DNA from: an uncultured Gammaproteobacteria bacterium
Lineage (GTDB): Bacteria; Patescibacteriota; Patescibacteriia; 2-12-FULL-57-11
Assembly (NCBI GenBank): GCA_964648865.1
Contig: CAZYLV010000002.1
Coordinates: 79,272-143,271, forward strand
Direction: 5' to 3'
DNA: 64,000 bases
Shown here: in pieces, positions 35,083 to 40,230 of the stretch
Layout: every line of letters begins with the position of its first letter
How positions within the stretch are numbered: the stretch's first letter is position 1
Notes under the pieces: model-generated
What the model saw: the letters and a program-made list of their open reading frames with translations, nothing else
The model's database searches: none
Told to the model about the DNA's origin: nothing
Translations under genes and position numbers: made by a program

Positions 35083-35131
35083 ACACAAGATGTTGTGGTC
35101 AAAGAGTTGTGGATAACACTATATGTTGTGG
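35083..35131 (+). promoter_or_regulatory. Two tandem NrdR boxes (ACACAAGATGTTGTGG and ACACTATATGTTGTGG) upstream of the ribonucleotide reductase gene
   Basis: Both 16-mers match the NrdR-box consensus acaCwAtATaTwGtgt. Their centres are ~33 bp apart, in a locally AT-richer stretch 60 bp upstream of the nrdJ ATG. Confidence 0.75.
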
Positions 35132-35190
35132 TCGATACCCGAGCGGTGGTATCGTAGGAGGGTCGCTCACCCGTAACCACGTCGGAGGAT

Positions 35191-38100
35191 ATGCCAGAAG
35201 TCGCTTCGCAGAAGACCGTCGACAGCGCCCGCCTCAATGAGGCCATCGTCCAGTATCTCTCCGCGCTGAAGACCGTGGCGAAACGCGACGGCAAGGCCCA
35301 ATCCTTCGATCCCCAGAAGTTGGCCGTCTCCATCGACGCCGCCATGCTCGGCGGGGGCATCTCGGACGCCGTCGCCGTGCGCCGCATCGTGGAGCGGGCC
35401 ATCGCCCGGCTGGAGGACCGCTACGACGGCCACACCGTGCCGACCACGGCCGACATCCGCGAGACGGTCTCGGTGACGCTCATCGACCACAACCTGGCCC
35501 ATGTCGCCAAGCGCTACATGGCCTTCCGCCAGCTCAAGGACTTCCTGCGCCGCGGCCAGGACGCCGTCTACGGCCACGGCATCGCCGTGCAGCGCCGCTA
35601 CACCAAGCCCGGCACCCATCCCTACGACGAGATCGCCTGGGAAAAGCGCGACGCCCGCATCACCAACGAGAAGGGCAAGGTCATCTTCGAGCAGAAGGAG
35701 GTCGAGGTGCCCGCGTATTTCTCGCAGACCGCCACCAACATCGTCGTCCAGAAGTACTTCCGCGGGAAGCTGGGCACGCCGGAACGCGAGACCAGCGTCC
35801 GCCAGATGGTCGACCGCGTGGCCCGGACCATCGCCAACTGGGGCCGCGCCGGCGGCTACTTCGCCACGGCCGCCGACGCCGACGCCTTCGAGGCCGAGCT
35901 GACCTGCATCCTGGTGAAGCAGATGGCGGCCTTCAACAGCCCGGTCTGGTTCAACGTCGGCATCAACCCGCAGCCGCAGTGCTCGGCCTGCTTCATCAAC
36001 TCCGTGCAGGACGACATGCGCTCCATCCTGACCTTGGCGGTCACCGAGGGCATGCTCTTCAAGTACGGCTCCGGCACCGGCTCCAACCTGTCCTCGCTGC
36101 GCTCCAGCCGGGAGAACCTCGGCGGCAGCTCGGGCAAGTCCTCGGGCCCGGTGTCCTTCATGAAGGGCTTCGACGCCTTCGCCGGCGTCATCAAGAGCGG
36201 CGGCAAGACGCGCCGGGCCGCCAAGATGGTCATCCTCAACGTGGCGCACCCGGACATCCGCGAGTTCATCTGGTGCAAGGTCAACGAGGAGAAGAAGGCC
36301 TGGGCGCTCATGGACGCCGGCTACGACGGCTCCATCACCGGCGAGGCCTACCAGAGCGTCTTCTTCCAGAACGCCAACAATTCCATCCGCGTGACCGACG
36401 AGTTCATGCAGGCCGCGGTGGAAGACACGGACTGGACGACCCGCGCCGTGACCACCGGCGAGCCGGTGGAGACCGTCAAGGCGCGCCAGCTGCTGCGCGA
36501 GGCCGCCGAGGCCGCCTGGCTGTGCGGCGACCCGGGCATGCAATACGACACCACCATCAACCGCTGGAACCCCTGCATCAACACGGCCCGCATCAACGCC
36601 TCCAACCCGTGCTCGGAGTACATGTTCCTGGACGACACGGCCTGCAACCTGGCGTCGCTCAACCTCATGAAGTTCCGCCGCGCCGACGGCTCGTTCGACG
36701 TCGAGAGCTTCCGCCACGCCAGCCGCATCGTCATCACGGCCATGGAGATCCTGGTGGGCAACTCCAGCTACCCGACGCCGGCCATCGAGCAGAACAGCCA
36801 TGACTTCCGCCCGCTCGGCATCGGCTACGCCAACCTGGGCGCGCTCCTCATGGCCAACGGCCTGGCGTACGACTCGGACGAGGGGCGCAACTTCGCCGCG
36901 GCCATCACGGCGCTGCTCTCGGGCGAGAGCTATCGCCAGAGCGCGGCCGTCGCCGAGCGGCTGGGGCCCTTCCGCTACTGGGACAAGAACCGCGAGCCGT
37001 TCCTGAAGGTGCTCGGCATGCACCGCGACGCCTCCTATGGCGTGCCGGAGGCCGGCGTGCCGGCCGATCTCATGGCCGCCGCGCGCCAGGCCTGGGACGA
37101 GACGCTGCGCGAGGCCGGCAAGCACGGGGTGAAGAACGCCCAGATCTCGGTGCTCGCGCCGACCGGGACGATCGCCTTCCTCATGGACTGCGACACCACG
37201 GGCATCGAGCCGGACATCGCGCTCGTCAAGTACAAGTGGCTGGTGGGCGGCGGGATGATCAAGATCGTCAACAACACCGTGCCCGAGGCGCTCAAGAAGC
37301 TCGGTTACACCGAGGTCCAGATCCGCGAGATCATGGACCATGTCGACAAGAACGACACCATCGAGGGCGCGCCGCATCTCCAGGAGAAGCACCTGCCGGT
37401 CTTCGACTGCGCCTTCAAGGCCCAAAAGGGCAAGCGCTCCATCCATTACATGGGCCACCTGCGCATGATGGCCGCGGTCCAGCCGTTCATCTCCGGCGCC
37501 ATCTCCAAGACGGTCAACCTGCCGCATGAGGCCACGGTCGACGACGTCATGGAGGCCTACGTGGAGTCCTGGCGGCTCGGGCTCAAGGCCGTGGCCATCT
37601 ACCGCGACGGCTCCAAGCGCCAGCAGGCCCTGACCACGTCGCTCGACACCGACCAGTCCAAGCAGGCCAAGAAGGAGGCCGTCTCGGCTGCCGTTTCCCC
37701 TGCGGCCGCCGCCGAGGTCAGTGCGGCACCGCGCCGCCGCCGCCTGCCGGACGAGCGCCGCTCCATCACCCACAAGTTCGCCATCGGCGGCCACGAGGGC
37801 TACATCACCGTCGGGCTCTACGACGACGGCACGCCGGGCGAGATCTTCATCTCCATGAACAAGGAGGGCTCGGTCATCTCCGGGCTGATGGACTCCTTCG
37901 CCACGTCCGTCTCCGTGGGGCTGCAATACGGCGTGCCCCTCAAGGTGCTGGTCAACAAGTTCGCGCACGTCCGCTTCGAGCCTTCGGGCTACACCAACAA
38001 CCCCAAGATCCGCATCGCCAAGTCGCTCGTCGACTACATCTTCCGCTGGATGGCCAGCAAGTTCCTCACCCACGAGGACCAGCGCGCCGTCGGCATCCAG

Positions 38101-39244: not shown

Positions 39245-39685
39245 ATGAAACCCAAACTCGCCGCTTCCTTCATCGTCGTCGCGCTGGCCGCCTTCCTGCT
39301 CGGCTGGAGTTTCGGTCCTTCGCTGGCGCCGGCCCCGGCCGCTCCCGCGCCGGCCATGGACCAGAAGGAGCGCACCGTCTCCGTCATGCTCGACTTCGGC
39401 GACGGCACGGTGCGGACGTATGAGGGCGTGGCCTTCGCCGAGGGGGAGACGCTCTTCGACGTCATGCTGCGGCTCTCCGAGCGCGGCGACGGCTTCGTCT
39501 TCCGCCACCAACCGCCGGGCCAGTACGGCATCCTCATCGACCAGATCGGCAACATGGCCAGCGGTGCGGACGGCAAGTACTGGTTGTGGTACGAGAACAA
39601 CCGCATGGGGCAGGTGGCCTCGGACGCCTATGTCCTGCGGCCAGGCGACGTCATCGAGTGGAAGTTCATCAACCTCAAGATGTGA
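39245..39685 (+). CDS. DUF4430-domain secreted protein (transcobalamin-like, putative corrinoid-binding)
   Basis: A signal peptide and anchor, then the C-terminal KYWLWYENNRMGQVASDAYVLRPGDVIEWKF, which matches the DUF4430 signature (YW.Y.VNG....G...Y.L.DGD.I.W). Confidence 0.65.
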   Translation: MKPKLAASFIVVALAAFLLGWSFGPSLAPAPAAPAPAMDQKERTVSVMLDFGDGTVRTYEGVAFAEGETLFDVMLRLSERGDGFVFRHQPPGQYGILIDQIGNMASGADGKYWLWYENNRMGQVASDAYVLRPGDVIEWKFINLKM

Positions 39686-39687
39686 GC

Positions 39688-40230
39688 ATGCCCTACTTCA
39701 TGGCCGCCATCCTGGCGCTCCTGACCTTCGGCCTGCGCCTGGTCGAGCACCCCGAGAACGTCGCCCCCACGGCCGCGGCGATGCTCTTTGCGGGCGCCGT
39801 CCTGCCTCGGCGCTGGGGCTGGACCGCGCCGCTCGCGGGTTCCCTCGCCGCCGACGCCGTCATCGGGCTCTACGCCTGGCAGGTCATGGTCGCGGTCTAT
39901 GTCTCGTTTGCGGCCGTCTGGGCGCTCTCGGCGCTCGTCAACCGCGCCGCGCGTCCGGCCCGCACCGCGGTGCTGGCGATGACCGGTTCGTTGCTCTTCT
40001 TCCTGGTCACCAACTGGGCGACCTGGATGTGGACCGACCTCTACCCGGCCACATGGGCGGGGCTCGCCATGAGCTACGCCATGGGCGTGCCGTTCTTCCG
40101 CAACACCCTGCTCGGCGATCTCCTCTTCACCGGGGCGCTGTTTTCCGCGTATGCTGGATCGGTCTGGATCGTCCGCCACCGCACGGAACTCTTCGCCCAT
40201 CGGGTGATGCTGCGCGCGCGGGATCAATGA
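39688..40230 (+). CDS. Small six-TM membrane protein. Possibly an ECF-transporter S-component (candidate corrinoid substrate-capture subunit).
   Basis: ~180 aa with six hydrophobic helices, located directly after the DUF4430 gene. The assignment rests on context only. Confidence 0.4.
   Translation: MPYFMAAILALLTFGLRLVEHPENVAPTAAAMLFAGAVLPRRWGWTAPLAGSLAADAVIGLYAWQVMVAVYVSFAAVWALSALVNRAARPARTAVLAMTGSLLFFLVTNWATWMWTDLYPATWAGLAMSYAMGVPFFRNTLLGDLLFTGALFSAYAGSVWIVRHRTELFAHRVMLRARDQ

Follow-up and report, generated by a model that had tools for sequence, protein, structure and literature searches.

The genomes of the candidate phyla radiation (CPR)/Patescibacteria are very small, and these bacteria are believed to rely on other cells for their cofactors. 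No description of how they acquire vitamin B12 for a B12-dependent ribonucleotide reductase (RNR), which is an essential enzyme, was found in the literature searched (cobalamin, riboswitch, energy-coupling factor). The question is raised by a stretch of 64,000 nucleotides (positions 79,272 to 143,271 of contig CAZYLV010000002.1; referred to here as the window), whose relatives are metagenome-assembled genomes (MAGs) of CPR/Patescibacteria. In the window the gene for a class II, adenosylcobalamin (AdoCbl)-dependent RNR, nrdJ, is followed by genes for a small acidic protein (orf86), an ATP:cob(I)alamin adenosyltransferase (cobA), a protein with a DUF4430 domain and a six-helix membrane protein of the family DUF6580. 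A preliminary description of this DNA had proposed that these genes provide for the capture, import, adenosylation and use of a corrinoid, and the results given below agree with that proposal: the DUF4430 protein is related by sequence to the beta-domain of animal cobalamin carriers, the DUF6580 protein is predicted to have the fold of an energy-coupling factor (ECF) S-component, and in other genomes the family has strong ties to cobalamin riboswitches, adenosyltransferases, BtuB-like receptors and NrdJ. It is probable that the region 35083–40951 (~5.9 kb) is a single operon, running from an NrdR-box promoter region (35083–35131) to a bidirectional terminator (40922–40951), which would be repressed by NrdR and in which the DUF4430 protein would capture the corrinoid, the DUF6580 protein import it, CobA adenosylate it and NrdJ use it.

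Genes of the probable nrdJ operon and their protein families

Every gene in 35083–40951 lies on the plus strand and packing is tight, with junctions of 1, 21, 33, 2 and 4 nt in the order nrdJ/orf86/cobA/DUF4430/DUF6580/DUF389. Palindromes had previously been noted in the intergenic regions and are indeed present in the spacers of 21 and 33 nt, whereas the sizes of 11–22 nt given for these regions do not agree with the junctions measured. The assignment of the nrdJ product (35191–38349, plus strand) to class II was confirmed with both Pfam and NCBIfam. The protein possesses an N-terminal ATP-cone, the class II N-terminal domain Ribonuc_red_2_N (PF08471, 1e-22), the barrel (PF02867, 4.9e-140) and a C-terminal TSCPD/Cys-rich tail, and scores 1447.5 bits with NF005122 (cutoff 859) and 591 bits with TIGR02504 (cutoff 400).

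The three products that had been named as lying downstream, an adenosyltransferase, a secreted-type DUF4430 protein and a six-transmembrane protein, were all identified (PF02572, 1e-46; PF14478, 3.2e-8; PF20221, 3.2e-35). The adenosyltransferase gene does not follow nrdJ immediately, as had been stated, since a conserved open reading frame (ORF) of 86 aa (orf86; 38351–38611), overlooked in the preliminary description, lies between the two. CobA (38633–39211, plus strand) is of the CobA/BtuR type, matching positions 3–172 of the 172 in PF02572 with 159.7 bits (cutoff 25.7) and carrying the P-loop GTGKGKTT. It scores below the curated NCBIfam cutoffs, with 158.2 bits against 185 for the subfamily model NF004637 and 142.4 against 167.75 for the equivalog model TIGR00708, and is by these sequence scores a divergent member of its family.

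The DUF4430 protein (39245–39685, plus strand; 34.3 bits with PF14478, cutoff 23.8) is CbrS-like; in it a Pro/Ala linker joins an N-terminal hydrophobic anchor or signal to the DUF4430 domain. Its N-terminus, MKPKLAASFIVVALAAFLLGWSFGPS, has no cysteine and would serve instead as a membrane anchor or cleavable signal. There is no NCBIfam model for this protein or for the DUF6580 protein. An alignment of 54 rows was made from the window protein, six proteins from metagenome loci and 47 ORFs upstream of DUF6580 in GTDB loci, the latter picked for their size and strand; of these 47, only one or two fail to align as anchor-plus-DUF4430 proteins. When the profile of this alignment was searched against the PDB, the beta-domain matches were to transcobalamin-1 (TCN1; 6.4e-8), transcobalamin-2 (TC2; 1.6e-4) and intrinsic factor (2.3e-4). 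This profile evidence makes DUF4430 a homologue of the beta-domain with which transcobalamin and intrinsic factor bind B12, and the protein is a predicted corrinoid binder. The eukaryotic carriers (transcobalamin, haptocorrin, intrinsic factor) have this domain at the C-terminus, whereas the window protein has the beta-domain only, is predicted to be membrane-tethered, and has a membrane transporter as its partner in place of an endocytic receptor.

Proteins with an alpha/alpha-toroid were observed at some CPR loci of the family, where they lie behind an AdoCbl riboswitch and upstream of the DUF4430-DUF6580 pair. In two of these (L009, 5985–7520; L051, 1225–2760) the toroid occurs with a peptidoglycan-binding domain, and in a third (L010, 5601–7520) it is fused to a DUF4430 domain. 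An alpha-toroid together with a beta-domain is the full two-domain architecture of transcobalamin, of which these proteins would be bacterial versions, either split or fused.

The DUF6580 protein (39688–40230, plus strand) is a six-helix membrane protein and a predicted corrinoid transporter. A model built with AlphaFold2 (AF2) from an alignment of 55 homologues (A1), which also provided the family profile, has a mean predicted local distance difference test score (pLDDT) of 90.9. The best Foldseek matches are structures of BtuM with bound cobalamin (8ovv, 8c7p), with a probability of 1.0, a template modelling (TM) score of 0.58 and 18–19% identity, followed by FolT S-components. By sequence the protein has no direct match in the PDB with phmmer, and BtuM was retrieved neither by phmmer nor by hmmsearch with the A1 profile. 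The best PDB sequence match of that profile is 6fnp_A (hmmsearch, E=0.0014). 6FNP is the structure of ECF-CbrT (PMC5997447), and its chain A, a "membrane protein" of 182 residues, was taken as CbrT; a fragment of this chain retrieves "ECF transporter S component" proteins of lactobacilli, one of them inside a cluster of RNR, DUF4430, S-component and PduO genes. Alignment of DUF6580 with CbrT homologues by hhalign gave a probability of 78% (E=1.8e-5), the 68 aligned columns being confined to the N-terminal half. This alignment pairs the conserved R...P-x-P-N-x-x-P and S-[DN]-x-x-[IL]-G-F stretches of the two families and brings their invariant residues together, placing R17/N24/P27 and D56/G60 of DUF6580 opposite R25/N34/P37 and N66/G70 of CbrT. 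Conserved polar residues in A1 are R17, H21, N24, D56, N109, Y119 and D144.

The preliminary description had suggested an ECF S-component for the six-transmembrane protein. The fold part of this suggestion holds, with the matches to BtuM and FolT and the probable remote homology to CbrT, and membership of the CbrT or BtuM family in the strict sense does not: at E<=0.01 the protein matches PF20221 only and not PF12822 (ECF_trnsprt), whereas the CbrT fragment matches PF12822 and not PF20221. Judged from model and profiles, DUF6580 forms a family of its own that has the fold of an ECF S-component; it is probably related distantly to CbrT and lies outside both the CbrT (PF12822) and BtuM families.

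Three other genomes (L003, L005, L012) share the gene order nrdJ-orf86-cobA-DUF4430-DUF6580, and their DUF6580 proteins are 57–62% identical to that of the window; NrdJ is 82% identical to its orthologues in L003 and L005. Flanking genes (murA and those for a cupredoxin, an exonuclease and VKOR) are likewise kept in these genomes. The gene orf86 (plus strand) begins 1 nt past the nrdJ stop codon and encodes a small acidic protein with no sequence match in Pfam, NCBIfam or the PDB and no Foldseek match. Its twelve relatives, at 79–87% identity, all belong to this clade, and it is as conserved as NrdJ and CobA and more so than the DUF4430 and DUF6580 proteins. The AF2 model has a four-helix core (residues 1–61, pLDDT ~90) and a disordered tail, GEKEEDIFEGAPDLIGHA, the sequence of which is conserved. 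The protein may assist NrdJ or CobA as an accessory or docking factor.

The wider DUF6580 family was surveyed in 80 species-representative GTDB loci and four distant metagenome loci, with 508 kb scanned for riboswitches. At E<=1e-10 its profile retrieves 5,034 clusters (50% identity). Most of the 80 loci come from MAGs titled as Patescibacteria-type groups, the others being labelled Armatimonadota, Dormibacteria and Bacteroidota. The gene immediately upstream of DUF6580 codes for a DUF4430 protein in at least 46 of 79 loci (Pfam, E<=1e-3), and one protein of 337 aa (P0235) is a fusion of DUF6580 (residues 5–165) and DUF4430 (residues 255–329), which is Rosetta-stone evidence that the two work together. 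Cobalamin-clan riboswitches were found at Rfam gathering scores in 27 of the 80 loci, in 21 of them upstream on the same strand, and occur also in L008, L009 and L010. The density of approximately one match per 17 kb over the 508 kb is, by a general estimate, far above a genomic background of a few cobalamin riboswitches per genome. Other neighbours of DUF6580 are PduO-type adenosyltransferases (five loci), CobT, a BtuF-like binding protein and an intein-containing NrdJ, and in L072 and L075 genes for BtuB-like TonB-dependent receptors lie upstream, behind riboswitches. Together the beta-domain match, S-component fold, CbrT link, synteny, fusion and riboswitch association make a corrinoid-uptake role for the DUF4430/DUF6580 pair well supported, and by a wide margin the best-supported reading.

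A cobalamin riboswitch was also seen directly downstream of DUF6580 in six loci (L028, 3762–3900; L074, 3810–3888; L078, 3729–3871; L088, 3772–3904; L055, 4271–4347; L062, 4452–4527), where it precedes an ORF of 375–576 aa with no significant Pfam family (one match below cutoff). The labels of these MAGs range from Saccharibacteria, Levyibacteriota and Microgenomates to a mislabelled-looking "Gammaproteobacteria". This ORF looks like another B12-regulated protein family.

Proposed corrinoid supply and its regulation

Two NrdR boxes had been reported upstream of nrdJ and were recovered here as ACACAAGATGTTGTGG (35083–35098) and ACACTATATGTTGTGG (35116–35131), both on the plus strand and each with one mismatch to the pattern ACACWANATNTWGTGT. 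They are the sole matches to this pattern in the window, against 0.01 expected by chance, and both are kept in L003 and L005, although the spacer around them differs there. The NrdR regulons of nrd operons have this arrangement as well, with 16-bp palindromic boxes standing in tandem before an RNR gene; tandem boxes in bacterial nrd operons were reportedly described by Rodionov and Gelfand in 2005. The centre-to-centre spacing is 33 bp, and the typical value is 31–32 bp. The window differs from these regulons in that its operon adds genes for cofactor uptake and cofactor activation, and in that nrdR is not among its ORFs.

The lack of a cobalamin riboswitch, also reported previously, was borne out with Rfam: no cobalamin-clan riboswitch was detected in the window at gathering scores, nor at E<=10 in 33900–41500, nor in the L003, L005 or L012 loci. 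Between the NrdR boxes and the nrdJ start codon only 59 nt are left, which is shorter than any cobalamin aptamer model. As had been claimed, no genes for de novo B12 synthesis are present in the window; cob/cbi genes, EcfT (CbiQ), EcfA and nrdR were all missing from the ~65 window ORFs scanned against Pfam, as were the nucleotide-loop assembly genes cobU, cobS, cobT and cobC. On general knowledge of CPR genomes, the host is likely to be a B12 auxotroph.

In the proposed route the DUF4430 protein, a counterpart of Lactobacillus CbrS, would be anchored on the outer face of the membrane and capture external corrinoid there. The corrinoid would then be handed to the DUF6580 protein and moved across the membrane by a toppling-type mechanism. 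DUF6580 may do this without an ECF ATPase module, like BtuM, with uptake being pulled by trapping inside the cell. CobA would turn the imported corrinoid into AdoCbl for NrdJ, and NrdR, if it occupies the tandem boxes, would repress the whole unit according to the dATP/ATP ratio. Import of the cofactor would be called up together with the RNR and not be shut off by B12 through a riboswitch.

A comparable gene cluster is known from Lactobacillales. The transporter ECF-CbrT is said to have been predicted by Rodionov and colleagues in 2009. In Lactobacillus delbrueckii the cbrT gene lies within an nrdJ-cbrS-cbrT-pduO cluster, and this organisation was the basis for predicting the specificity of CbrT (Santos et al., 2018, eLife, PMC5997447). 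Genes for an RTPR-type class II RNR, a DUF4430 protein, CbrT (PF12822) and a PduO-type adenosyltransferase were found in a row in L. helveticus, and cbrS is therefore the DUF4430 gene. The cbrS ORF of this assembly is just 56 aa long and may be truncated. No cobalamin riboswitch was found at the L. helveticus locus at E<=1, and an NrdR-like box, CCACAAGATATTGTGG, is present at 3230–3245, ~70 nt upstream of rtpR.

The window and the Lactobacillales cluster thus have in common a class II RNR, a small extracytoplasmic DUF4430 protein, an S-component-type protein of ~180 aa and a cobalamin adenosyltransferase in one cluster, and the L. helveticus copy also resembles the window in having an NrdR-like box upstream of the RNR gene and no riboswitch. 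They differ in the families employed. The S-component belongs to PF20221 in the window and to PF12822 in CbrT, and the adenosyltransferase is of the CobA/BtuR type in the window and of the PduO type in Lactobacillales, these two being unrelated folds. Pfam domains place an ATP-cone on the NrdJ of the window, in contrast to the RTPR-type protein. Gene order also differs, the window adds the conserved orf86, its DUF4430 protein is membrane-anchored without a lipobox cysteine, and no ECF module was found in the Pfam scan of its ORFs. The operon is the CPR counterpart of nrdJ-cbrS-cbrT-pduO, the same design and already known in kind. The preliminary description had held its regulation to be atypical, which is not supported: the Lactobacillus cluster follows the same logic, and approximately two thirds of DUF6580 loci have no detectable riboswitch. 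There is little new regulatory biology in the window, NrdR control without a riboswitch being common to the known cluster.

Several points weigh against the route proposed here. The Foldseek E-values for BtuM are modest (4.5e-3), and the sequence link between DUF6580 and CbrT is weak, given its hhalign probability and its restriction to the N-terminal half. No cysteine is found among the invariant or near-invariant columns of A1, and the Cys80 cobalt ligand of BtuM has no conserved counterpart. The family loci without a detectable riboswitch must also be counted here. A full-text literature search found no paper mentioning DUF6580. With no nrdR gene in the window, NrdR control is read from the boxes themselves, and transcription of the unit is assumed to continue through the two hairpins within it.

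The most serious alternative concerns the energy source. DUF6580 could be a conventional group-II ECF S-component which docks onto a shared EcfAA'T module encoded elsewhere, import then being driven by ATP as in ECF-CbrT. This we consider the less probable case, though one with an appreciable chance of being correct. The best sequence relative of DUF6580 among solved proteins is CbrT, an ECF-dependent S-component, and one member of the family has a weak ECF-ribofla_trS match. As group-II S-components are, by definition, encoded apart from the ECF module, a missing ATPase in the neighbourhood would be compatible with it.

Against such docking, the closest structure is that of a solitary transporter, BtuM. 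Genes for BtuM usually co-localise with btuR, and BtuM works without an ECF module; uptake followed by conversion by BtuR has been proposed (Rempel et al., 2018, PMC6072759). BtuM was found mostly in Proteobacteria and has an essential cobalt ligand, Cys80 (PMC6072759). The likeness of DUF6580 to the BtuM of Thiobacillus denitrificans, the closest solved structure to the DUF6580 model, extends to its similar size and to its gene context, cobA/btuR lying two genes upstream of DUF6580 in the window much as btuM adjoins btuR (PMC6072759). BtuM also occurs with BtuB-type receptors in diderms, and DUF6580 with TonB-dependent receptors in L072 and L075; the members concerned, from MAGs labelled Armatimonadota and Bacteroidota, stand behind riboswitch-controlled receptors, a setting in which BtuM had also been predicted. 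Toppling without an ECF module and uptake pulled by adenosylation were proposed for BtuM as they are here. Differences remain, in that identity is 18–19% with no match at sequence level, the Cys80 of BtuM, and with it the decyanation chemistry, has no conserved counterpart in DUF6580, and a DUF4430 partner is lacking for BtuM. Pfam revealed neither EcfT nor EcfA in the window, and a motif regular expression (Walker A followed by the ABC signature motif) had no match in the flanks of 91 loci. We therefore lean slightly towards DUF6580 working without an ECF module, because BtuM is its nearest structure and has similar gene contexts (btuR, BtuB-like receptors), and because a linked ATPase was not detected.

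It is less likely by far that the DUF4430/DUF6580 pair handles something else (e.g., cobalt, a different tetrapyrrole or an incomplete corrinoid like cobinamide), with adjacency to nrdJ and cobA reflecting a loose B12-related co-regulation. Cobalamin riboswitches do also control cobalt transporters and other genes not involved in B12 transport, and the label "putative metal binding protein" is given to one solved protein of DUF4430 type, 3u7z. ECF-CbrT itself carries cobinamide as well as cobalamin (PMC5997447). However, the DUF4430 profile matches the beta-domain of the animal cobalamin carriers TC1, TC2 and intrinsic factor, and some loci add an alpha/alpha-toroid protein or fuse this toroid to DUF4430. 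With none of cobU, cobS, cobT, cobC or cbi in the window, cobalt or cobinamide would be useless to NrdJ unless such genes are present elsewhere.

A broader proposal is made tentatively, and in our estimate falls somewhat short of an even chance. DUF4430 and DUF6580 may form a widespread B12 uptake system independent of the ECF module, which would serve CPR/Patescibacteria as their main route of corrinoid import and is present also in MAGs labelled Armatimonadota, Dormibacteria and Bacteroidota. In such a system a membrane-tethered, transcobalamin-like binder would feed a solitary S-component, and the binder with its alpha-toroid partner would be a prokaryotic relative of the transcobalamin/intrinsic-factor architecture. 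In the clade of the window, the pair would have been captured into the nrdJ operon, with loss of riboswitch control and gain of orf86, which may link delivery of the cofactor to the reductase.

The window is chiefly of value as a starting point for work on what DUF6580 does and on the conserved orf86. Corrinoid import with a transcobalamin-like partner is a testable function for DUF6580, a family of ~5,000 clusters at 50% identity. The design of RNR, binder, S-component and adenosyltransferase has been assembled at least twice from different families, in Lactobacillales and in CPR, which suggests that selection in B12 scavengers favours a link between the supply of the cofactor and the demand of the RNR.

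GC-rich hairpins within the probable operon

Two near-identical GC-rich hairpins, both perfect palindromes of 20 bp, occupy the spacers on either side of cobA. Hairpin 1, GGGCGTGATGCGTCACGCCC (38612–38631), starts directly behind the orf86 stop codon, with 1 nt between its end and the cobA ATG, and hairpin 2, GGGCGTGATGCATCACGCCC (39214–39233), begins 2 nt after the cobA stop codon and ends 11 nt before the DUF4430 ATG. The sequence GGGCGTGATGCRTCACGCCC occurs twice, at 38612 and at 39214, and a related copy is located at 32639; in all there are six matches to the palindrome pattern (three sites, both strands), where 0.1 would be expected by chance. A fourth related element, GTAGGGGCGTATGGCAATACGCCCCTAC, is located at 17853–17880. 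As RNA the hairpins have folding energies of -16 to -25 kcal/mol (-16.2 kcal/mol for hairpin 1).

Their number and their position just upstream of cobA and the DUF4430 gene would suit operators for a transcription factor that co-regulates corrinoid salvage with the RNR, and the preliminary description had offered the palindrome as such a co-regulator. This is improbable. In L003 the orthologous spacers have hairpins with the same outer stem and flanks and different centres (GGGGCGGGGTTTCCCCGCCC, GGGCGCGGAAACCGCGCCC), the counterpart of hairpin 2 keeping the flanks CTAGTCGGGCG...CGCCCCTACAG, such that structure is kept and sequence is not. The genes of L005 overlap and have no hairpin between them. 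Related copies stand at unrelated places in the window (32635–32662, upstream of murA, and 17853–17880), which is typical of repetitive extragenic palindromic (REP)-like elements, and the hairpins abut stop and start codons with no room for a promoter. Conservation of structure rather than sequence in L003, absence from L005 and the copies elsewhere in the window together suggest that the hairpins are dispensable REP-like stem-loops of this genome, which would form in the RNA, and not sequence-specific operators, whether B12-specific or of NrdR type. They may influence the stability of mRNA, polarity or the coupling of translation. Hairpins 1 and 2 were also considered as canonical intrinsic terminators and rejected, as no T-run follows them and they are not called by a terminator scan.

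The further copies at 17853–17880 and 32635–32662 are GTAGGGGCGT...ACGCCCCTAC hairpins with stems of 12–13 bp. The former lies inside a glycosyltransferase-methyltransferase ORF of 672 aa (17244–19262), which may be two genes, and the latter between murA and a divergent gene with a PEGA domain.

That the adjacency has no functional meaning at all, DUF4430 and DUF6580 being generic envelope proteins which happen to lie beside nrdJ and cobA in a gene-dense genome, is very improbable: CPR genomes are indeed compact with many short spacers, and DUF389 shows that unrelated genes insert here, but a riboswitch approximately every 17 kb over 508 kb, a pair kept across phyla, a fusion protein and the independent clustering of the same four functions in Lactobacillales from different protein families all contradict it.

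Probable operon boundaries and neighbouring genes

A gene for a DUF389 membrane protein (40235–40915, plus strand; PF04087, 2.2e-36) follows DUF6580 in the same direction after 4 nt. It was found in contigs of the same species (L001, L002) and is absent from L003 and L005. As it is present only in the window's own species, it is treated as a passenger, probably co-transcribed and outside the conserved module. The only terminator-like site of the operon in the terminator scan comes after this gene. It is a symmetrical hairpin, GAAAAGACGCCCGGTGCGGGGCGTCTTTTC (40922–40951), with a 12-bp stem and A and T runs at its flanks, resembling a bidirectional intrinsic terminator, and is located between DUF389 on the plus strand and a convergent cupin gene on the minus strand. 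This hairpin is likely to be the end of the operon.

On the minus strand beyond it (40955–42237) are genes for the cupin, VKOR and a thioredoxin-like membrane protein; VKOR and the gene next to it also accompany the nrdJ operon, in synteny, in L003 and L005. These may constitute a putative disulfide-bond or redox module. They are followed by a tight co-directional trio (42261–45127) coding for a Fur-family regulator, a ParA/MinD-type NTPase and a fusion of a pyridoxal phosphate (PLP) enzyme with rhodanese. A "CbiA" Pfam match at 42687–43676 was considered as a cob gene and rejected, as it is to the generic ParA/MinD nucleotide-binding family PF01656 only, with no other cob-associated domain.

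The G+C content of the window is ~69%, which on general knowledge would be unusually high for a genome of the CPR/Patescibacteria type; most DUF6580-family loci of other lineages have 31–58%. The sole ABC system found among the ~65 window ORFs scanned is of the MacB/HlyD type (60454–63125). Most of the remaining genes have roles in glycosylation and the cell envelope, and two adjacent Ser/Thr kinases are encoded at 56326–59735.

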